Source: an uncultured Trueperaceae bacterium (GTDB taxonomy: Bacteria > Deinococcota > Deinococci > Deinococcales > Trueperaceae). Taken from it: a stretch of DNA of 64,000 nt. The translations under genes were made by a program, and so were the position numbers. The notes under the pieces were generated by a model, which did no database searches, was not told where the DNA came from, and was given only the letters and a program-made list of their open reading frames with translations. Where the stretch lies: positions 192,001 through 256,000 of the forward strand of contig CAVSGP010000004.1 in NCBI GenBank assembly GCA_963727505.1, in the 5' to 3' direction. Positions 24,753-35,654 of the stretch are shown piece after piece (position 1 is the stretch's first letter; each line of letters begins with the position of its first letter).

Positions 24753-27700
24753 GTGAAAGACCGATGGGGGCTGAGCGTTCTGGGCCCTGCCGTGTTGCAG
24801 CGCCCGGGACGAGCGACGGAAACGCTAGAGAGGAAGGCCGCGGCGCTGCTGGCCTACGTGGCCATCGCCGGATCGACGCCGCGCGCCACGGTGGCAGGTC
24901 TGCTGTGGCCCAACGTGGTCGATGCGCGCGCCCGTAACAACCTCCGGCAGCTCCTGCACCGGCTCCGTACCTTCGAGGACCTACTCCAGCCGGGCGGCGA
25001 CCTGCGGCTCGGCGCCGTCACCGCGGACGTCACGGAATTGCAGGAGCTGCACGCTGCCGGCCACGCCGAAGCCATCGCCGAGCGCTGGGGCCTGCATGCG
25101 CCGATGCTGCTCGAGGACCACAGCTACGACGACTGCCCCGACCTGGCCGAATGGGTGATCGCCGAGCGCGAGCGCCTGCTCGACATCGTGCGTAGCAGCC
25201 TCGAGACGGAGGCCGACCGGCTCGAGGCTGCCGGCGACGTCCGGCGGGCGCTCCAGCTGGCGCAGCGGCTCTCCGCCCTCGATCCCCTGTCGGAAGTGGA
25301 CTACCGAAGGGTCATGCGACTCCACTATCTCTCCGGTGACCGGGGCCAGGCCATGGCCGCCTTCCGCCGCTGCCGCCAGATGCTGCGCGAGACGTTCGGG
25401 CTCGAGCCCCTCCCCGACACCGTGGAGCTTGCGAGAGCCATCGACAGCGGCTCGTCGGCCGCGCCACGTCCCCGCCCGACGGTAGCACTGCCGGTCACGC
25501 TCCTCCGGCCGCCGCGATTGCTGGGACGCGAGGCGGCGTGGCAGGCCCTCGAGGACGCCTGGCGGCGGGTGCACACCATCGTCGTGCTGGGCGAGCCGGG
25601 CATCGGGAAATCTCATCTGATGCACGACTTCGCCGCGACCCGGGGCGAAGCCCTGGTCACGCGCGGCATGCCCGGCGACCGTAACGTCGCCTACGCCAGC
25701 AAGGCGCGTTCGCTGGCAGCGATCCTGCGCGACCATCCGGATTACGCCGACGAGCCCTGGGTGCGCGACGAACTGGCACGCATCCTCCCCGACCTCTTCC
25801 CACGACCCGCCGGACAGGCGCCGATCACCGACGAGCCCCAGAAGCTCCGCCTGTTCGAGGCCGCCGCACGGGTCCTCGCCAGGGCCCTGGAGGGCAAGGC
25901 CGTGCTCGTGAACGAGGACGCTCACCAGTGGGACGACGCCAGCTTCGAGATGGGCGCGTACTTCGTCACGCGCTTCGCCGACGCGCCGGTCCGGGCCCTG
26001 GTCTCGTACCGCCCGGACGAGATGGGCCGAGCGAGGGTCCGCACCATGCGTGCCGCCGCCGAGAGCGGGCTGGCCGAGATCGTGACGCTCGAGCCGCTCG
26101 GGTTGGACGCCATCGAGGGCCTCATCGCCGAGACCGGCATGGCGGACGCGGCACCTCCCGCCTCCCTGGTCCTCCAGGTTTCGAGCGGGAATCCCTTCTA
26201 CGCCCTCGAGTTCCTGCGCAACGCCTGGCAGAAGGCCTCGGGCGACACTCCCGTTGGAGGCGACGCCCTTCCCAGCAGCGCGGCCGGTGTCCTCTCCGGT
26301 CGGATCGAGCGCCTGTCGCGCGCAGCAGCCGACGTGCTCCGGATGCGGGCGATGGCCGGCACAGCCTTCTCGATGGAGCTCGCAGCCGCCGTCCTGGAGG
26401 TGCCTTCCGGCTCGGTGCGGGCCGGGGTGGACGAGCTCGAGCGCCACCGGCTGCTGCACGAGGGCGAGCTGGCGCACGAGCTCGTGGCCGACGCCATCGA
26501 GGGCCGGACACCCCCCGAGGCCGCCCGGCTGTGGCACCGGCGGCTCGCCGTCCAACTCGAGGCCTTCGACGAAGCTCCCACCGCCATCGCCACGCACTAC
26601 CTGGCCGCGTGGGAGCCGACGCGCGCGTTCCCCCACCTGCTGCGCGCGGGGGACGGCGCCCGCGCGGTGTTCGCGCTCGAGGAGGCCGAGCGCTGGTACC
26701 TGCGCGCTCTCTGGACGGCCCCGAACGAGGCCGGGCGCGGCGACGCGCTCGTTCACCTGGACGACGTCGCGTCGCAGCGAGGACGCATCGAGGACGCCGA
26801 GGCGCTCCTGGGGGAGCTCGAGCGCGTCGCATCGACCCTGCAGGACCCCGTCCTTCTGATCGAGAGCGCGCTGCGGTGGGCGCGCTGGGCCACGGTGCGC
26901 GGCGAGCACTCGCTCGCTGCACGCAAGGCCCGCCAGGCGCTCGACGATGCCCTCGATCTCGGCGACGCCGAGCGCATCGACCGCGCCCGGCTGGCGCTCG
27001 GCGACATCGCCTACTTCTCCGGTGCCTACCCGGAGGGGCACGACCACTTCCTCGAGGTGACGCGCACGGGGCACGAGGCGCGGCGTCTACGCGCCTTCCA
27101 GCGCCTCGGCGCGCTGGAGGCCATGCGCGGCGACGTCGACGCGGCCTTCGAGCATCACCGCGAGGCCCTCACCCTTGCGCGCCGCCTGCACGACGTGCCA
27201 CTGATCGCGACCCTGCTCAACAGCCTGGGTGCCGACCGCGAGCGGCGGGGTGCCTACGAGCAGGCCATCGAACACTTCTCCGAGGCCGCCGAGGTCGCCC
27301 TGCGCGCAGCGGACCGCCGCACCGGCGCCATCGCCCTGTCCAACGCGTCGCTGACCGAGGTAAGCCGCGGCGCCCTGGCCGCCGCGCTCGGGCACGCCGA
27401 GCGCGCGCTGGAGGTCTCCGCCCCTCTCGGAGCCGACCGCTCCGCGGCGATGGCCAATTTCGCGCACGGTTACGCGCTGCGGCGTGTGGGCCGCTTCGGC
27501 CCCGCGCGCGCGGCGCTGCGCGAGGCGGCCCGGCTCCGCGAGGCGGCATCCGACGTACGCGGCGCCCTGGTAGCAAGGTTCAACCTGGCTGCCATCGACC
27601 TCGAGACCGCCAAGGGCGGCGACCGCGCCGCCGCGACGGCCCGGGTCGAGGCCGTGCTGGAGGAGCTGGCACAACTCAACATCCCGCAGTTCTACGCCTG

Positions 27701-28082
27701 GTGCCTCCTCGAGCAGGCGCTCCTGACAAGCGATCCGGGCCTGGTCCGTGAGCGCGTCGCGCAGGCCACCGAGCTGGATGACGGCGCCCACCTGCAACTC
27801 GCCGCCGCCGTGGCCGCCCTTCGCGGCGGCGTGCTGGCGGGCGCCAACGGCGCGGCCACCGCCATGAGGCGGTCCGTCCAAGAACGCCTCGAGGCCGGCC
27901 CCGTACTGGAGACCAGCTTCGCCTACCTGTTGCTGGCGCACACGGCCCCGTCAGCGGACGAGAGACGCGTGCTGCTCGAGCACGCCAACGCCCGTCTCGA
28001 TCAGGAGGTCGGCGTCCTCGGCAGAGCAGCGAAGAGGAGCCGCCGGGAGTACCTCGCGCGGCGGCTGCCGAGCGCCGACTGA
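24753..28082 (+). CDS. SARP/BTAD-AAA ATPase-TPR transcriptional regulator
   Basis: ARNNLRQLLHRL, DPLSE...R.M (BTAD), GEPGIGKS P-loop, GNPFY, TPR-like C-terminus. Confidence 0.9.
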   Translation: MKDRWGLSVLGPAVLQRPGRATETLERKAAALLAYVAIAGSTPRATVAGLLWPNVVDARARNNLRQLLHRLRTFEDLLQPGGDLRLGAVTADVTELQELHAAGHAEAIAERWGLHAPMLLEDHSYDDCPDLAEWVIAERERLLDIVRSSLETEADRLEAAGDVRRALQLAQRLSALDPLSEVDYRRVMRLHYLSGDRGQAMAAFRRCRQMLRETFGLEPLPDTVELARAIDSGSSAAPRPRPTVALPVTLLRPPRLLGREAAWQALEDAWRRVHTIVVLGEPGIGKSHLMHDFAATRGEALVTRGMPGDRNVAYASKARSLAAILRDHPDYADEPWVRDELARILPDLFPRPAGQAPITDEPQKLRLFEAAARVLARALEGKAVLVNEDAHQWDDASFEMGAYFVTRFADAPVRALVSYRPDEMGRARVRTMRAAAESGLAEIVTLEPLGLDAIEGLIAETGMADAAPPASLVLQVSSGNPFYALEFLRNAWQKASGDTPVGGDALPSSAAGVLSGRIERLSRAAADVLRMRAMAGTAFSMELAAAVLEVPSGSVRAGVDELERHRLLHEGELAHELVADAIEGRTPPEAARLWHRRLAVQLEAFDEAPTAIATHYLAAWEPTRAFPHLLRAGDGARAVFALEEAERWYLRALWTAPNEAGRGDALVHLDDVASQRGRIEDAEALLGELERVASTLQDPVLLIESALRWARWATVRGEHSLAARKARQALDDALDLGDAERIDRARLALGDIAYFSGAYPEGHDHFLEVTRTGHEARRLRAFQRLGALEAMRGDVDAAFEHHREALTLARRLHDVPLIATLLNSLGADRERRGAYEQAIEHFSEAAEVALRAADRRTGAIALSNASLTEVSRGALAAALGHAERALEVSAPLGADRSAAMANFAHGYALRRVGRFGPARAALREAARLREAASDVRGALVARFNLAAIDLETAKGGDRAAATARVEAVLEELAQLNIPQFYAWCLLEQALLTSDPGLVRERVAQATELDDGAHLQLAAAVAALRGGVLAGANGAATAMRRSVQERLEAGPVLETSFAYLLLAHTAPSADERRVLLEHANARLDQEVGVLGRAAKRSRREYLARRLPSAD

Positions 28083-30278: not shown

Positions 30279-30345
30279 CCCGAGCTTGACTCTCTGGATT
30301 CTGCGCCGCTAGACTCGGTGCATACCCGAGTAATAAGCTCGGGAT
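30279..30345 (+). promoter_or_regulatory. Promoter TTGACT-18-TAGACT with two CCCGAG-N7-CTC(G/T)GG operator copies
   Basis: -35 30286-30291, -10 30310-30315; palindromes at 30279-30297 (1 mismatch) and 30325-30343 (perfect). Confidence 0.7.
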
Positions 30346-30454: not shown

Positions 30455-31450
30455 ATGCCTTCGCCCGCCACGCGCCGTTCGCGGCCGCTCCCCGACGGTC
30501 CGATCCGATCGGCCGCCTTTGCCCTGGTGCTAGCGCTCGCCGCGGCGGGCGCCCAACCCGCCCCGGCGGTCGCGCCGTCCGAGGTCGTCGACCTGTTCCG
30601 GCTCGAGGCCCGGGCTCACGCCGCGGCGAGCCTGAGCACGGACGGCCACACCGACGACGCCCGTGCGCAACTCGACGGCGCCGCGAACGGTCCGGTCGCG
30701 GCGCTCACGGCCACCCCTGACTTCGATTCCCTGCTCGCAGACGTCGGCAAGTTGCGCGCTGCCGTGCAGCGCGGGGATGGGCGTGCCGCACGCGAGGCGG
30801 CCGCCCGCATCGACGCCATCGTCCGCGACCGGACCGTGGCCCGGCTCGACGGCGCCGATGCCGTGCAGGCCGTGCTGATCGCGCTGGTGCGCGAGGCCGG
30901 CCGGGAGGGGCTCGAAGCCGCCAACGCCGCCGGCGTCCCGGCATCCACCGAGCCCCAGGCCTACGCCTCCGCGCTGGCGGACGTCGCCCTCGACCTTGCG
31001 CGGGAGCACGGCGCCGCCGGCACGACCCGGGATGCGTTGGCCACCCTGCAAAGCGCGCTCGGGGCCCCCGGCGGTTCCGGCACGGGGGCCGAGGTCATCC
31101 GCTCGTCGGCCGACAACGCCCTGGCGGCGCTGGGGGCGCCTGCCAGCGCAGCCGATACCGAGCGGCTCTTCGCTGCGATCGACCACGATCTCGACCTCGC
31201 CGAGGCGCGCTACCGCGCGGGGGACGTCGCCGGCGCACGCGAGGCGCTCATCGACGCCTACCTGGAGAACTTCGAGGACCTCGAACCCCCGCTCGTGGAC
31301 GCCGCGCCCGACCTCAAGGAGCGCCTCGAACACACCCTGCGTGACGGATTGCGTTCGCTGGCGGCGCAGGGCGTCTCGCCCGACCGCTTCGAGGCGGCCG
31401 TGGAGAACACGCGGGCCGATCTGGAGCGCGCGCGGGAGGCGCTGCAGTGA
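30455..31450 (+). CDS. Exported all-helical protein with FTR1-periplasmic-like C-terminal domain
   Basis: Signal peptide; YRAGDVAGAREALIDAYLENFEDLEPPL resembles YRSGEVDKAFQLSRSAYLDHFEYAEPKL in the next gene. Confidence 0.7.
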   Translation: MPSPATRRSRPLPDGPIRSAAFALVLALAAAGAQPAPAVAPSEVVDLFRLEARAHAAASLSTDGHTDDARAQLDGAANGPVAALTATPDFDSLLADVGKLRAAVQRGDGRAAREAAARIDAIVRDRTVARLDGADAVQAVLIALVREAGREGLEAANAAGVPASTEPQAYASALADVALDLAREHGAAGTTRDALATLQSALGAPGGSGTGAEVIRSSADNALAALGAPASAADTERLFAAIDHDLDLAEARYRAGDVAGAREALIDAYLENFEDLEPPLVDAAPDLKERLEHTLRDGLRSLAAQGVSPDRFEAAVENTRADLERAREALQ

Positions 31451-32793
31451 CACCGGCCCGGGCCACAACCGCGCTGGCGACCACGGCGCTGGCGACCACG
31501 GCGCCGGCGAGCGCAGCGCCAGCCACCGTCCGCCCCCGCCGCCTGGCGCCGCGCTCGTTCACCGTGCTGCTCGCGCTGGCGCTGGCTACGACGCTGCTGG
31601 CGTTGTTCCCGCAGGCACGCGCCCAGCAGAAGGTCGATGTCGGCGCCGAACTGCACACCGCCCACGACATGGTCGCTCGTAGCCTGCGCCTCTACCGCTC
31701 CGGCGAGGTCGACAAGGCCTTCCAGCTCTCGCGCTCGGCCTACCTCGACCACTTCGAGTACGCCGAGCCCAAGCTGCGGGTGCTCGACCCCGACCTGATC
31801 CTGGACACGGAATTCCTCTTCGCCAACCTCCGCAACTCCATGAAGGCGGGCGCCCCCATGAGCCAGATCGACGGCGCCGCCACCAAGATCTACGCCAACT
31901 TGCTGCGCGCTGAGACCGTGATCAGCGGCACCGGTGCGCTAGCGCCGACGCTGGCCGCGGGCGGGAGCTTCTTCATCCTGTTCCGCGAGGGGCTGGAGGT
32001 CGTGCTGCTGCTGGGCGCGATCCTGGCCTACCTGCGAAGCACCCGCAACGACCGGCTCGCACCCGGCGTGTGGTACGGCTTGCTGGCTGCGCTGGCCGCT
32101 ACGGGCCTCACCTACGTCGCCGCATCGACCGTGCTGCGCTTCGCGCCCGCCTCGCGCGAGTTGCTCGCGGGCATCACCAGCGTGGTGGCGGTGGGCATCC
32201 TGTTCTACCTGAGTTTCTGGATGTTGCAGCAGAGCGACCGGCGACGCCACATGGAGTTCATGCGGGCGCGGCTCGGCCAGGCGGTGCAGCGTGGCAGCCT
32301 CCTCGCCGTTGCGGGGGCCGCGTTCGCCAGCGTCTACCGCGAAGGGTTCGAGACCGTGCTGCTCTACCAGGCGCTGGTCGGCGTCAGCGGGCCGGTGATG
32401 GGCTACCTGTGGCTCGGGCTGGCCCTCGGGGTGGTCGCCCTTGCGCTGGTGGCGTTCCTGATCCTGCGCCTTCAGCGCAGGCTGCCCCTGCAGGTGTTCT
32501 TCCGGGTCGCCGTCACCGTCACCGCGCTGCTGGCCGTCGCCTTCGCGGGCAACGCCGTGCGGGCGCTCCAGGGTGCCGGCTGGCTGCCGATCACCAACCT
32601 CCTGGGGACGTTGCCGCGCCTCAACCCAAGCCTCGCGGCGCTGACCGGCTTCCACCCCACCCTCGAAACCGTGCTGGCGCAGGTCTGCTTGATCGGCGTC
32701 TACGCGGTCGGGATGGTAGCATTCCTCCTGCGTCGGGGCCGGCTCAGGGCTCAACGTGCCGCCACCGCGACGGGTGAGACGTCCTCGAGCTGA
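31447..32793 (+). CDS. FTR1/EfeU family iron permease with N-terminal periplasmic domain
   Basis: Two RExxE motifs (REGLE, REGFE), about 7 TM segments; GTGA overlap with the upstream gene. Confidence 0.93.
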   Translation: MTPARATTALATTALATTAPASAAPATVRPRRLAPRSFTVLLALALATTLLALFPQARAQQKVDVGAELHTAHDMVARSLRLYRSGEVDKAFQLSRSAYLDHFEYAEPKLRVLDPDLILDTEFLFANLRNSMKAGAPMSQIDGAATKIYANLLRAETVISGTGALAPTLAAGGSFFILFREGLEVVLLLGAILAYLRSTRNDRLAPGVWYGLLAALAATGLTYVAASTVLRFAPASRELLAGITSVVAVGILFYLSFWMLQQSDRRRHMEFMRARLGQAVQRGSLLAVAGAAFASVYREGFETVLLYQALVGVSGPVMGYLWLGLALGVVALALVAFLILRLQRRLPLQVFFRVAVTVTALLAVAFAGNAVRALQGAGWLPITNLLGTLPRLNPSLAALTGFHPTLETVLAQVCLIGVYAVGMVAFLLRRGRLRAQRAATATGETSSS

Positions 32794-32890
32794 CGGCGGC
32801 TCCTCGTATCACGGGCAGAATCCCACCGGCGGCCCCACGCGCCCGACGGTGGGGCGCTGGGTACCGCTCGCCCGCTCTGACGCCAAGGCC

Positions 32891-34999
32891 ATGACCACCC
32901 CGAACCCCTCGCCGCCGCAAAGCGCCGTTCGCATCGGCATCGACGTCGGCGGGACCTTCACCAAGGGCGTCGCGCTCGACGCCGTCACCAGGAAGATCTA
33001 CGCACGCGTCCGCGTCGCCACCACGCACCATGCCTCCGAGGGCGTGGTGGCGGGCGTGCTGCAGGTCCTGGAGGGGCTTCTCGCTGCGCTACCGGCCGAT
33101 CGTCCGGTAGCGCTCGTGGCGCACGCCACCACGCAGGCCACCAACGCGCTACTCGAGGGCGACATGGCGCACGTGGGCTTGCTGGCGCTCGGGCCGGCCG
33201 CCGAGGAGCGCCTGATCCGCCGGCGCACGCAGCTCTCCGAGCTACGGCTGGCCGGTGGCCGGCCGCTCGAGCTGAGCTGGGCCTTCGTGCCTGCCGACGC
33301 GCCGGACTTCGACGCGCGCGTGCGCGCCCTGGCCGCGACCTGGCAGGTCGACGGGGTCGAGGTGGCGGCCGTGAGCCAGGCGTTCGCCGTCGAGGACCCT
33401 ACTCTCGAGCGCCGCGCGGCCGAGCTGCTGCGGGAGGCTGGCCTGCCCGCCACCGGCGGCTCGGAGCTGACCGGCGTCTACGGCCTGGAGATGCGCTCGA
33501 GCACCGCCGCCATCAACGCCTCGATCCTGCCCACCATGCTCCGGACCGCCGAGCACGTGGAGCGAGCGTTGGAGCGCACCCTGCCTGGCGTTCCCCTGCT
33601 GGTGGTCCGCGGCGACGGCGGCGCCGTCGATCTGCAGGGACTGCGCGAAGCTCCCATCCACACCGTCGTCAGCGGTCCCGCCGCCTCGCTGGCGGGCGCC
33701 ATCCTCTACCACGGCGTATCCGATGGCATCCTGTTCGAGGTCGGCGGCACCAGCACGAACATCGGCGCCGTCAAGGCAGGACGCCCGGTGATGAAGCACA
33801 TGACGGTGATGGACTTCCCCACGGCGTTGCGAGCGGCCGACATCCGCATCGCGGGCGTGGCGGGGGGCAGCCTGGTGCGCCTCTCGGGCCGACGTATCGA
33901 GGAAGTGGGGCCGCGCAGCGCGCATATCGCCGGCCTTCCCTACGCGTCTCTCGCCGACCCAGCCGATCTAGAAGGCGCGCGCCTCGAGCGCATCGCGCCG
34001 CGCCCCGGAGATCCCGCCGACTACGTCGTCATCGACGCCGCCGGCGGCCGTTTCGCGATCACACCCACCTGCGCGGCCAACGCCCTGGGCCGCCTTCCGA
34101 CCGACGACCCCGGCTACCGAGAAGCGGACGCCGCCCGCAGGGCACTGGCACCACTGGCACGCAGTCTCGGCGCCGGGATCGACGACGTGGCGGTGGCGGT
34201 GCTGGAAGCCAGCGCCGAGAAGCTCACCCGCACGGTGCGGGCCGTGGCCGACGACCACGACCTTGGGGGCACCCGGCTCTACGGCGGCGGCGGCGCCGCC
34301 CGCGTGCTGGGCCCGGTGGTCGCCGCGCGCCTGGGCATGCCGTTCGAGTGCATTCCCGAGCCCGACATCATCTCCAGCATCGGAGCCGCCCTCACGTTGA
34401 TCCGCGTGGAGCGCGAACGCAACGCCGGCATCGACGATCCCACCGTCGGCGACCTGCTGTTGCGCGAGGTCGAGGGGGAGGCCGTGCGGCTCGGCGCGGA
34501 CCCGGCGCGCCTGCAGTCCGAGGTCCACTACCTGCCCGAGGAGCGACTGCTGCGCGCCGTGGCGTTCGGGGCTCATCCCGTCGACGGTCATCAGGGTGAC
34601 CTCGACGACGACGTGCTGCGCACGCTCGCACGTCCGCAGCTCGGAGGCGGCCCCTGCGAGCTGCGCTACCGGAGCCCGGCACTGGTGCTGCTCAGCGGCG
34701 AGCGCCAGGAGCGCCGCCTGTTCTCCCGCATCCACCGTCACCCGATGGTGGCGATGGACCGGCGCGGAGCACGACTGCTGGAGCTCGACGACGCCACCAT
34801 CCTGACCGGCGCTCCGGGCGAGGTGCTGGCCGCTCTCGAGGCCCGTCTCGGGACCGGCACCGCGCCCCGGACGCACGCCGTCACGCCGCGCCGACTCATC
34901 GATTGCAGCCACCTGAGCGATCCCGACGCCCTGCGGCGCTTCCTCCGGGGCGCCTTCAGGCTCGAGACCCAGGTGGCGCTGGTCCTGAACGAGAGCTGA
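32891..34999 (+). CDS. Hydantoinase A/oxoprolinase-like ASKHA ATPase
   Basis: IGIDVGGTFT, HATTQATNALLEG, SGPAAS, EVGGTSTNI, AGGS. Confidence 0.88.
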   Translation: MTTPNPSPPQSAVRIGIDVGGTFTKGVALDAVTRKIYARVRVATTHHASEGVVAGVLQVLEGLLAALPADRPVALVAHATTQATNALLEGDMAHVGLLALGPAAEERLIRRRTQLSELRLAGGRPLELSWAFVPADAPDFDARVRALAATWQVDGVEVAAVSQAFAVEDPTLERRAAELLREAGLPATGGSELTGVYGLEMRSSTAAINASILPTMLRTAEHVERALERTLPGVPLLVVRGDGGAVDLQGLREAPIHTVVSGPAASLAGAILYHGVSDGILFEVGGTSTNIGAVKAGRPVMKHMTVMDFPTALRAADIRIAGVAGGSLVRLSGRRIEEVGPRSAHIAGLPYASLADPADLEGARLERIAPRPGDPADYVVIDAAGGRFAITPTCAANALGRLPTDDPGYREADAARRALAPLARSLGAGIDDVAVAVLEASAEKLTRTVRAVADDHDLGGTRLYGGGGAARVLGPVVAARLGMPFECIPEPDIISSIGAALTLIRVERERNAGIDDPTVGDLLLREVEGEAVRLGADPARLQSEVHYLPEERLLRAVAFGAHPVDGHQGDLDDDVLRTLARPQLGGGPCELRYRSPALVLLSGERQERRLFSRIHRHPMVAMDRRGARLLELDDATILTGAPGEVLAALEARLGTGTAPRTHAVTPRRLIDCSHLSDPDALRRFLRGAFRLETQVALVLNES

Positions 35000-35009
35000 G
35001 GAGGAGACC

Positions 35010-35465
35010 ATGCTGTACCGACGCCAGCGCCACTTCCCCGCCTACCTGGCAGTGCTGATCACCGCCGTCGTCGTCTTCCCGCTGGCGTTCCTGCTGGGCC
35101 GCGCTACGGCGCCGACTCCGAGCCTCGCTACCCAGCTCACGCCCTCGATCTACGCCGTGCAGCACGCGCAGGGAACGCTCGACGTGGTGGACCTGGAGTA
35201 CGCCCGCGCGACGGGCGGAGGCCAGAGCGCCGGGGCCCAGACCGGCGACAGCCTCACCGCCGCCAAGGACGCCGCCCGCCGCGGGCTCGACGACCTCGAC
35301 CAGGCGACGGACCTCTCCCGCCTGTACCCCGATCGCGCCCGACAGGCGCGCGCCGATTTCGAGGCGCTCCTGCGCGCGATCGACCGGCGCGCCGCTCTCG
35401 ACGAGGTGAAGACGCTGACCGGCGCGCTCCGCGCCGACCTGGCCGCCATCGTCCCGGCGCTGTAG
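35010..35465 (+). CDS. Membrane-anchored helical hypothetical protein
   Basis: GAGGAGGAG RBS 10 nt after previous stop; one N-terminal TM then amphipathic helices. Confidence 0.75.
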   Translation: MLYRRQRHFPAYLAVLITAVVVFPLAFLLGRATAPTPSLATQLTPSIYAVQHAQGTLDVVDLEYARATGGGQSAGAQTGDSLTAAKDAARRGLDDLDQATDLSRLYPDRARQARADFEALLRAIDRRAALDEVKTLTGALRADLAAIVPAL

Positions 35466-35577: not shown

Positions 35578-35654
35578 GCGCCCGTAGCTCAGCTGGACAG
35601 AGCAGGGGACTCCTAAGCCCAAGGTCATAGGTTCGAATCCTATCGGGCGCACCA
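35578..35654 (+). tRNA. tRNA-Arg(CCT)
   Basis: GCGCCCG...CGGGCGC-A-CCA; loop CTCCTAA; GGTTCGAATCC. Confidence 0.92.

Follow-up and report, generated by a model that had tools for sequence, protein, structure and literature searches.

Background

FTR1 permeases transport metal ions in bare form by means of REXXE motifs, and they are thought to require a redox partner that oxidizes or reduces iron at the pore. In EfeUOB of Escherichia coli and Bacillus subtilis, an FTR1 permease with two REXXE motifs and its extracytoplasmic helpers are encoded in one operon. In FtrABCD of Bordetella, Brucella and Burkholderia, and in the cFtr1-P19/FetMP systems with ABC-type genes, the permease is assisted on both membrane sides by accessory proteins, and the P19-type clusters include ATP-using components of unclear role. 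Here we describe a cluster of four genes, A to D, in which an FTR1 permease (B) is followed by a stand-alone ASKHA protein of the hydantoinase-A type (HyuA-like; C). The cluster lies in a 64,000-nucleotide stretch of DNA from an uncultured Trueperaceae bacterium (positions 192,001 to 256,000 of contig CAVSGP010000004.1, assembly GCA_963727505.1), which we call the window; its G+C content is 72–74%, and the genome that holds it is 3.26 Mb in size and 97.4% complete. We put the probability at about one half that A to D form a metal uptake operon working through FTR1, most likely for iron, with ExxE helical bundles outside the membrane and C at the cytoplasmic face of B. The genes are as follows (positions are those of the window).

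30455-31450, plus strand: gene A, 331 amino acids (aa); exported helical protein of three four-helix bundles, the last with an AYLxxFExxE motif
31447-32793, plus strand: gene B, 448 aa; FTR1 permease with a signal segment, a four-helix-type N-domain, predicted to be periplasmic, at about residues 60-165, and a membrane part that bears REGLE and REGFE
32891-34999, plus strand: gene C, 702 aa from ATG (the frame is open from 32756); stand-alone hydantoinase-A-type ASKHA ATPase, predicted to be cytoplasmic
35010-35465, plus strand: gene D, 151 aa; single-pass membrane protein with an outer helical domain

The four genes are co-oriented and separated by -4 nt (A-B), 97 nt (B-C) and 10 nt (C-D). 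The start of A at 30455 is backed by a GAAAGGA ribosome-binding site and an ATG that are conserved in orthologous leaders, and the start chosen for C agrees with relatives 700–705 aa long. An original prediction, made from the sequence letters and their reading frames, had described the same four products (an exported helical protein, an FTR1 permease, a 702-aa HyuA-type protein and a membrane-anchored protein) with the same gaps, and the open reading frames and Pfam matches agree with it; the cluster that it described is a real, conserved unit.

Comparison with known FTR1 systems

The cluster resembles EfeUOB in that an FTR1 permease and extracytoplasmic helpers share one operon. It differs from EfeUOB in three respects: the genome of the window has no EfeO/M75 protein, B falls under the EfeU cut-off and has an extra N-terminal helical domain, and EfeUOB has no cytoplasmic ATPase, whereas the module described here has C. 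With FtrABCD, cFtr1-P19 and FetMP it shares an FTR1 permease with accessory proteins on both membrane sides; unlike them, it has no P19/FetP, and its putative ATP-user is an ASKHA hydantoinase-A homolog rather than an ABC ATPase. The yeast Fet3p/Ftr1p pair has the same REGLE-type permease, but no multicopper oxidase is encoded beside the permease of the window.

These differences were examined by family searches. Neither EfeO/M75 (PF09375), for which control genomes responded, nor P19/FetP (PF10634) was matched in the genome of the window, and its one match to Cu-oxidase_3 is on another contig (C1), away from the cluster. The four genes and their immediate neighbors gave no Pfam match to a DyP peroxidase (EfeB), a family not searched for genome-wide, and the cluster contains no polyferredoxin or cupredoxin gene, the cupredoxin families likewise not having been searched genome-wide. 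The original claim that no ferroxidase partner is present was thus borne out for the partners searched.

In the literature, no description of a pairing of FTR1 with a hydantoinase-A-type protein was found among the papers listed by full-text searches, and the part of PMC7785015 that was available concerns zinc/iron (ZIP-type) permeases only. In ammonia oxidizers, FTR1 genes are stated to occur "without the corresponding fet3p gene" in the available part of PMC9723733. The original prediction had spoken of an undescribed uptake system, and this part is supported: the genes are a conserved unit without the partners searched for, and the combination is best read as a previously undescribed accessory set for FTR1 uptake. 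A second part, in which the ATPase was to process or release an imported ligand and the system was to take up a metal chelate, found no support; nothing indicates a chelate, and FTR1 carries bare ions. FTR1 genes without a redox partner are common across prokaryotic genomes, and the module offers a concrete, testable alternative partner set for them.

Conservation of the gene pair in bacteria

The bacterial carriers examined belong to Trueperaceae, Deinococcus, Actinomycetota and Chloroflexota, and in every one of their genomes that has an ortholog of C, a B-type FTR1 gene is found directly 5' of it on the same strand. Among 60 relatives of the window's genome, full-length orthologs of C (74–96% identity) were found in nine, all other matches being partial and at most 34% identical, and orthologs of B (71–94% identity) were found in exactly the same nine. 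In 15 further relatives, there is only a distant FTR1 (28–43% identity) and no ortholog of C. The order B-C-D is kept in all nine loci of the family. A was detected by tblastn in six of the nine relatives and by its last domain only in one; in the two relatives without A, merely about 300 nt separate the regulator gene that lies 5' of the module from B.

A scan of a one-genome-per-species collection yielded 80 loci with relatives of C. A B-like FTR1 gene, including the N-domain, is directly 5' of C in 10 loci (four in Deinococcota, four in Actinomycetota and two in Chloroflexota), and these are all 10 of the bacterial loci of C's own clade. In Actinomycetota, 14 of 51 genomes have an ortholog of C, the same 14 have one of B, and the two genes are neighbors on one strand in 14 of 14; two other genomes have only a distant FTR1. 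This sample was built around one actinobacterial carrier and includes four unpublished genomes (carriers G078, G080 and G101, and non-carrier G087), without which the count is 11 of 47. In one actinobacterial genome (G083:C4:1032314-1035458), B and C are each split into two frames, by joint decay or by an assembly error.

In Deinococcus taeanensis, B and C overlap by 4 nt on a plasmid, where A to D are annotated as "hypothetical", "FTR1 family protein", "hydantoinase/oxoprolinase family protein" and "hypothetical", respectively; public records name the genes only in such generic terms. The closest public genome, from an uncultured Trueperaceae bacterium, is 97% identical across C. The gene for C is on large plasmids in both Deinococcus geothermalis and D. 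taeanensis, and it is absent from all six sampled genomes of a Deinococcus-like genus. Within the genus, the module seems to be an accessory element with a patchy distribution. It is present in culturable Deinococcus species.

Because the genes that flank A to D vary from locus to locus (UvrA, PolA, AcrB, TetR, MFS and others), the conserved unit is A-B-C-D, with B-C as its invariant core. Judged by gene order and co-occurrence, the linkage of B and C is not due to chance, and C is, at the level of genomes, an obligate partner of the permease in the bacteria examined. A survey of the ATPase's neighborhood across phyla had been proposed with the original prediction, which would have lost its ground if the homologs were not generally next to FTR1 genes; FTR1 adjoins C in all the bacterial cases examined.

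The hydantoinase-A-like protein

C matches Hydantoinase_A (PF01968, 167.8 bits) and Hydant_A_N (PF05378, 74.5 bits) in Pfam, but it is far under every NCBIfam equivalog cut-off (at best 73.2 bits against 1000). The AlphaFold model of C is confident, with a predicted local distance difference test score (pLDDT) of 87.7 and a predicted template modeling score (pTM) of 0.86. In Foldseek, C gave full-length matches with E-values from 8.5e-31 to 1.9e-23 to N-methylhydantoinase (NMHase; 9h03_A, E = 8.5e-31), acetophenone carboxylase (5l9w_b), acetone carboxylase (5svc_B) and caprolactamase (6yra_A), and 7nie was among its weak matches. C therefore has the same multi-domain fold over 702 residues as the A-type subunits CapA (6YRA), N-methylhydantoinase (9H03), acetone carboxylase beta (5SVC) and acetophenone carboxylase alpha (5L9W), and its phosphate-1 and phosphate-2 motifs keep the key acidic residues. 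It differs from these subunits in having no B subunit, in a changed signature, and in being paired with a permease in the bacterial loci examined.

According to the available part of PMC8453981, the ATP site of CapA is made up of the motifs DxGGTxTD, D(V/M)GGT and GxxPGP, mutation of D11 or D295 abolishes caprolactamase activity, and A subunits phosphorylate substrates or bicarbonate. From the comparison with CapA and NMHase, within what that part of the source gives, D18 and E283 of C are the counterparts of CapA D11 and D295; D18, T22, D242 and E283 are kept in all 40 sequences compared, and the glycine motifs DxGGT, GDGG and GGGG are retained. Four other positions give C its own signature. 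TFTK replaces TFTD and EVGGTSTN replaces D(M/I)GGTSxD, with the lysine and N290 each found in 30 of 30 members of the clade of FTR1-linked and archaeal sequences; CAAN replaces TDAN, with C394 in 38 of 40; and HIAGLxY, with H345 and Y351 in 40 of 40, follows GPRSA where canonical members have GxxPGP. The hidden Markov model (HMM) alignment of C to CapA and NMHase breaks at this GPRSA/GxxPGP region. Because D18 and E283 are kept and the signature is its own, C is plausibly an active ATP binder and not an ordinary lactamase subunit.

No hydantoinase B gene accompanies C. PF02538 (Hydantoinase_B) has no match in the genome of the window, given its completeness, or in four of the five other module-bearing genomes examined, and no such gene adjoins the relatives of C in any of the 80 loci; in the fifth carrier, which is actinobacterial, such a gene is present at a distance of about 360 kb. 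The sole other PF01968 match in the window's genome is DnaK. The ATPase had been called an orphan, an idea that a cognate hydantoinase B elsewhere in the genome would have overturned, and on this point the original prediction held. These results provide a first functional context for a large group of proteins that are called "hydantoinase/oxoprolinase family proteins", a misleading name, and that lack a B subunit.

That C is instead an ordinary hydantoinase or oxoprolinase A subunit, with its B subunit encoded elsewhere and FTR1 as an incidental neighbor, agrees with the names given by Pfam and the public records and with the distant hydantoinase B of one actinobacterial carrier, but the missing PF02538 in the window's genome and in four of the five other carriers, the score far under the equivalog cut-off, an active-site signature unlike that of CapA and NMHase, and the conserved neighborhood largely refute it and leave it very improbable.

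The permease and the helical proteins

B matches FTR1 (PF03239) over residues 174-366 with 70.5 bits (cut-off, 25.3) and is the sole FTR1 gene in the genome of the window. It is below the EfeU equivalog cut-offs of NCBIfam (NF041756, 108.9 against 255 bits; TIGR00145, 117.5 against 303.8 bits). In all 14 aligned relatives, the motifs REGLE (residues 180-184) and REGFE (residues 298-302) are present without change, as are R96, A98, Y99, L100, E104, E107, R111 and E122 of the N-domain. B also has a conserved loop at residues 262-285.

Neither A nor D has any Pfam or NCBIfam match. A begins with a signal-like hydrophobic segment, as read from its sequence, and its AlphaFold model (pLDDT 87.4) is all-helical, with about three four-helix bundles. 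The last bundle (residues 244-330) aligns with residues 73-159 of B (E = 5e-6). The motif common to A and the B N-domain is AYL(D/E)xFExxE, in which the tyrosine and two glutamates are Y99, E104 and E107 of B; in A, the residues A268, Y269, L270, E274 and E277 are shared by every one of the 31 A-type sequences. A search of solved structures with the sequence profile of A gave no match below E = 0.41, and Foldseek gave none at E of 0.001 or less, EfeO (7wgu_A) appearing as a weak match at rank 15 (E = 0.37). In VIA-align, A matched generic four-helix bundles only, the best being 5xsd_L (Z = 13.2, root mean square deviation 1.9 over 98 residues, model residues 232-331), in a score range that is common for helical bundles; hence no specific fold family can be named for A. 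The FTR1 of Nitrososphaera carries an A-like region as an N-terminal fusion.

In D, a short N-terminal tail with positive charge precedes a single hydrophobic segment. In the one-genome-per-species collection, homologs of D follow C in nine of the 10 bacterial loci, and they make up one family over three phyla (Deinococcota, Actinomycetota and Chloroflexota) with 24–28% identity to the D of the window. This family comprises 392 representative clusters at E of 0.001 or less, all of about 140–165 aa. Of the full-length representatives, all 119 have the membrane segment (median start at residue 10; median net charge of the tail, +2), 105 begin with M-x(0-3)-Y-R, and in 106 the outer part carries an (L/I/V/M)EY motif. 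The cytoplasmic tail, of about nine residues, is strongly conserved. For D, the ESM Atlas offered at best unnamed clusters (about 150 aa) that scored 0.86–0.88, short of the 0.9 line. The profile of D weakly finds A-type proteins (E = 4e-10 to 4e-3), and that of A finds one D (E = 1.4e-5), and because of these cross-matches, the outer domain of D is probably a bundle of the same kind as those of A and the B N-domain.

A, the N-domain of B and, probably, D are thus built on the same four-helix-bundle domain, in which an ExxE motif is conserved. ExxE motifs are known as Fe(III)-binding sites in other proteins. Because the bundles are homologous, a periplasmic metal-handling partner is probably present in the module after all, which the original prediction had overlooked. 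Two small protein families are defined by these comparisons, the A-type ExxE four-helix bundle and D.

An A-type helical domain also occurs in a group of FTR1 proteins of about 640–690 aa (P0189-P0200), where it is joined to cytochrome c domains (PF13442 and PF00034). In these proteins, the heme domain may fill the redox role that is missing in the window's module.

Promoter and leader

Three features precede the operon.

30286-30315, plus strand: promoter-like site, TTGACT-18 nt-TAGACT, the sole such site ahead of A to D
30325-30343: perfect inverted repeat, CCCGAG-N7-CTCGGG, just 3' of the -10 hexamer; candidate operator or leader hairpin
30279-30297: one-mismatch copy of the inverted repeat, CCCGAG-N7-CTCTGG, overlapping the -35 hexamer, 46 nt 5' of the perfect copy

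Two promoter-like sites were found in the region against 0.1 expected, the second of which precedes a tRNA gene. Both hexamers of the first are conserved in eight of eight orthologous upstream regions, including those of the two genomes without A, in which the conserved promoter stands before B. A promoter scan found no such site in the 97-nt gap between B and C or elsewhere inside the cluster, and no convincing terminator-like site is present inside it. By these signals, A to D are predicted to form one operon behind a single conserved promoter, which speaks against separate transcription of the genes, the case in which the original prediction would have failed.

The arms of the inverted repeat are kept in eight of eight orthologous leaders, while its 7-nt spacer is free to vary, and the perfect form occurs as a single copy in the genome. 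No regulon was detected for it, with 25 genomic matches at one mismatch or less against 23 for a reversed control, and since these numbers are alike, CCCGAG-N7-CTCGGG looks like a control site dedicated to this operon. It could be an operator or a leader hairpin; no Rfam family, and hence no known riboswitch, was matched in the leader. In two relatives, C-to-T changes in the left arm would preserve G-U pairs if the repeat is read as RNA.

Homologs of C in other bacteria and in archaea

In a quick maximum-likelihood tree of 77 homologs of C of at least 520 aa, two clades were separated with a support of 100. Clade 1 (39 rows) consists of 11 bacterial sequences, all 11 of them linked to FTR1, and 28 from Nitrososphaerota. 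Clade 2 (38 rows) comes from many bacterial phyla, and in 32 of the 38 a DcuC/GntP-type permease gene is found just 5' of the C homolog. This permease is about 450 aa long with 11–13 segments, and its gene is on the same strand, mostly 0–24 nt away. Most members have no Pfam match; DcuC NF037994 is matched at E = 3.7e-6, and a haloarchaeal plasmid copy, whose record is named "citrate transporter", matches PF03606 with 36.7 bits. On the 3' side of the clade-2 homolog there is a gene for a small soluble protein, either HExxH-bearing (about 200–245 aa; NC10 and Proteobacteria) or DUF309 (Melainabacteria), and a gene for an FAD-dependent oxidoreductase (PF12831) is often next. Such units (loci L054, L063, L069, L089, L097 and L132, and 28 more) are found in many bacterial phyla and on haloarchaeal plasmids. 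Since the sister clade is paired with a DcuC/GntP-type permease, pairing with a permease is a trait of the whole family of C, a point that the original prediction had likewise missed. The idea of an imported chelate would fit this sister clade better, its carrier being of an organic-anion type.

In the Nitrososphaerota, FTR1 is within the locus of C in three loci, and a gene for a DtxR-type iron-dependent repressor is near C in nine. In Nitrososphaera, the order is C, DtxR, an 817-aa FTR1 and a separate A-like gene, and about 410 N-terminal residues of this FTR1 align with full-length A. A long FTR1 of this kind was found in five of five archaeal genomes checked, about 16 kb from C in one and probably about 7 kb from it in another. 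Because the archaeal C is mostly not beside FTR1, C can work without a neighboring permease gene.

A gene for a fusion of a glucose/sorbosone-dehydrogenase (GSDH) propeller with a plastocyanin-type cupredoxin was also seen near C in eight loci (L094, L095, L106-L108, L061, L079 and L091), two of them from Actinomycetota and the others from Nitrososphaerota, and its product may serve FTR1 there as a redox partner. As a part of the module it was rejected: the genome of the window has only a weak, unlinked match to the GSDH part and none near the module.

Proposed mechanism and alternatives

In the proposed uptake system, A, the N-domain of B and D would bind the metal outside the membrane and pass the ion to the REGLE/REGFE pore. 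C would be located on the cytoplasmic side of B, perhaps also in contact with the conserved tail at the N-terminus of D. By binding or hydrolyzing ATP, it would accept the ion as it arrives, trap it or release it, or else gate the pore. The use of ATP by C would then supply the pull that is given in other FTR1 systems by ferroxidase or reductase coupling. The proposal draws on direct observations (gene order, co-occurrence, domain relationships, and the fold of C with its retained catalytic acidic residues).

Precedents exist for an ASKHA ATP-user that traps the cargo at the cytoplasmic mouth of a channel, namely glycerol kinase on the GlpF facilitator and hexokinase-like kinases on VDAC. These enzymes phosphorylate an organic substrate, whereas the cargo here would be a metal ion, and the prediction that C touches the channel is weak. 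In a complex prediction of B (residues 168-436), D (1-38) and C (12-702) in which C was treated as the partner, a score of 0.32 was obtained, against 0.00 for the best of three controls; the runs share at least 70% of contacts, and the pLDDT of the partner is at least 79. In the calibration of this score, 116 of 157 solved complexes reached the mark, as did two of 215 mismatched pairs, but those that did so with scores of 0.60 or less were just 18 of the 157 and both of the passing mismatches; moreover, the run used custom alignments and three chains, unlike the calibration set. The model thus gives weak support to a contact among B, C and D, which makes it slightly more likely and is no proof.

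Several observations weigh against this proposal. The clues to iron as the substrate are two, the family motifs and the DtxR neighbor in archaea. The complex score falls in a band in which passes are more often wrong than right unless the contact is likely beforehand. Canonical A subunits conserve three acidic residues that C has lost, and C also lacks the GxxPGP adenosine motif, so that its handling of nucleotides may be different or impaired. No longer form of C, such as a fusion with a permease, was found at E of 1e-30 or less among proteins of 1230-3510 residues, which is weak evidence. The helpers are not constant, A being missing in two of the nine close relatives and D in one Chloroflexia locus. 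In the archaea, FTR1 is not next to C in 25 of the 28 tree rows and is on a different contig from C in three of the five genomes checked, and a gene of the Asp/Glu/hydantoin-racemase type precedes C in 15 loci of Nitrososphaerota, so that C may be a soluble enzyme. The neighbors in clade 2 look like a catabolic set, which favors an enzymatic role over one in energizing transport.

In the main rival explanation, C would be a soluble enzyme that depends on ATP and, like a kinase, activates a carbonyl, a lactam or bicarbonate, as others of its family do. It would act on a small molecule in the cytoplasm, and its product would be needed when the metal arrives, for example because the enzyme makes or recycles a low-molecular-weight ligand or a phosphorylated compound to hold Fe(III). 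Its link with FTR1 would in that case be metabolic and regulatory and not physical. The complete hydantoinase-A fold with its catalytic D18 and E283, the usual position of the archaeal C away from FTR1 and beside a racemase-type gene, the enzyme genes (the FAD oxidoreductase and the HExxH-type or DUF309 protein) around the sister clade, and the phosphorylation of substrates or bicarbonate by A subunits, as given in the available part of PMC8453981, all agree with such an enzyme. But the characterized members all need a B subunit for turnover, of which the window's genome has none; no other enzyme gene is conserved beside A to D in bacteria, where the flanks vary; and B and C are strictly adjacent, to the point of overlap in Deinococcus, with a complex prediction that is positive, if weakly so. 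On balance, we regard the soluble enzyme as possible, though on the unlikely side.

It is also conceivable that the genes are merely co-regulated in a response to metal starvation, and that C has nothing to do with transport but serves, for example, in metal sparing or repair. The DtxR-type gene beside C in the nine archaeal loci, where FTR1 is mostly not adjacent, and the single dedicated promoter with its putative operator before the operon would fit this explanation. However, adjacency, order and strand are strict over three phyla and the co-occurrence of the orthologs is complete, which would rarely result from co-regulation alone, and the paralogous clade is likewise tied to a permease; we consider mere co-regulation quite unlikely.

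A wider form of the uptake proposal takes in both clades. The family of C would be a new class of permease-coupled ASKHA ATPases that dock on carriers of an otherwise secondary or channel type, FTR1 in one clade and DcuC/GntP-type permeases in the other, and make uptake ATP-dependent or ATP-gated, and for FTR1 the result would be a redox-independent, ATP-driven uptake of iron that replaces the ferroxidase. In this full form, the idea is speculative and unlikely to hold throughout. There is a fair chance that the coupling of an ATPase to a permease is itself a new principle, and if C does act on the permease, this would be a new way of energizing or gating metal uptake.

Neighboring genes

35578-35654: tRNA-Arg(CCT), 3' of D

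A gene of the EamA/RhtA type is on the opposite strand near the cluster, as identified with Pfam and NCBIfam. On the 5' side, Pfam identified a gene for an S8 protease and one for a BTAD-AAA-TPR regulator. The latter (BTAD-AAA_16-TPR; 24753-28082, 1109 aa) is syntenic just 5' of the module in Trueperaceae relatives; it directly adjoins the module in several of them, and in the window and two others the S8 protease gene intervenes. This regulator may control the A-D operon.

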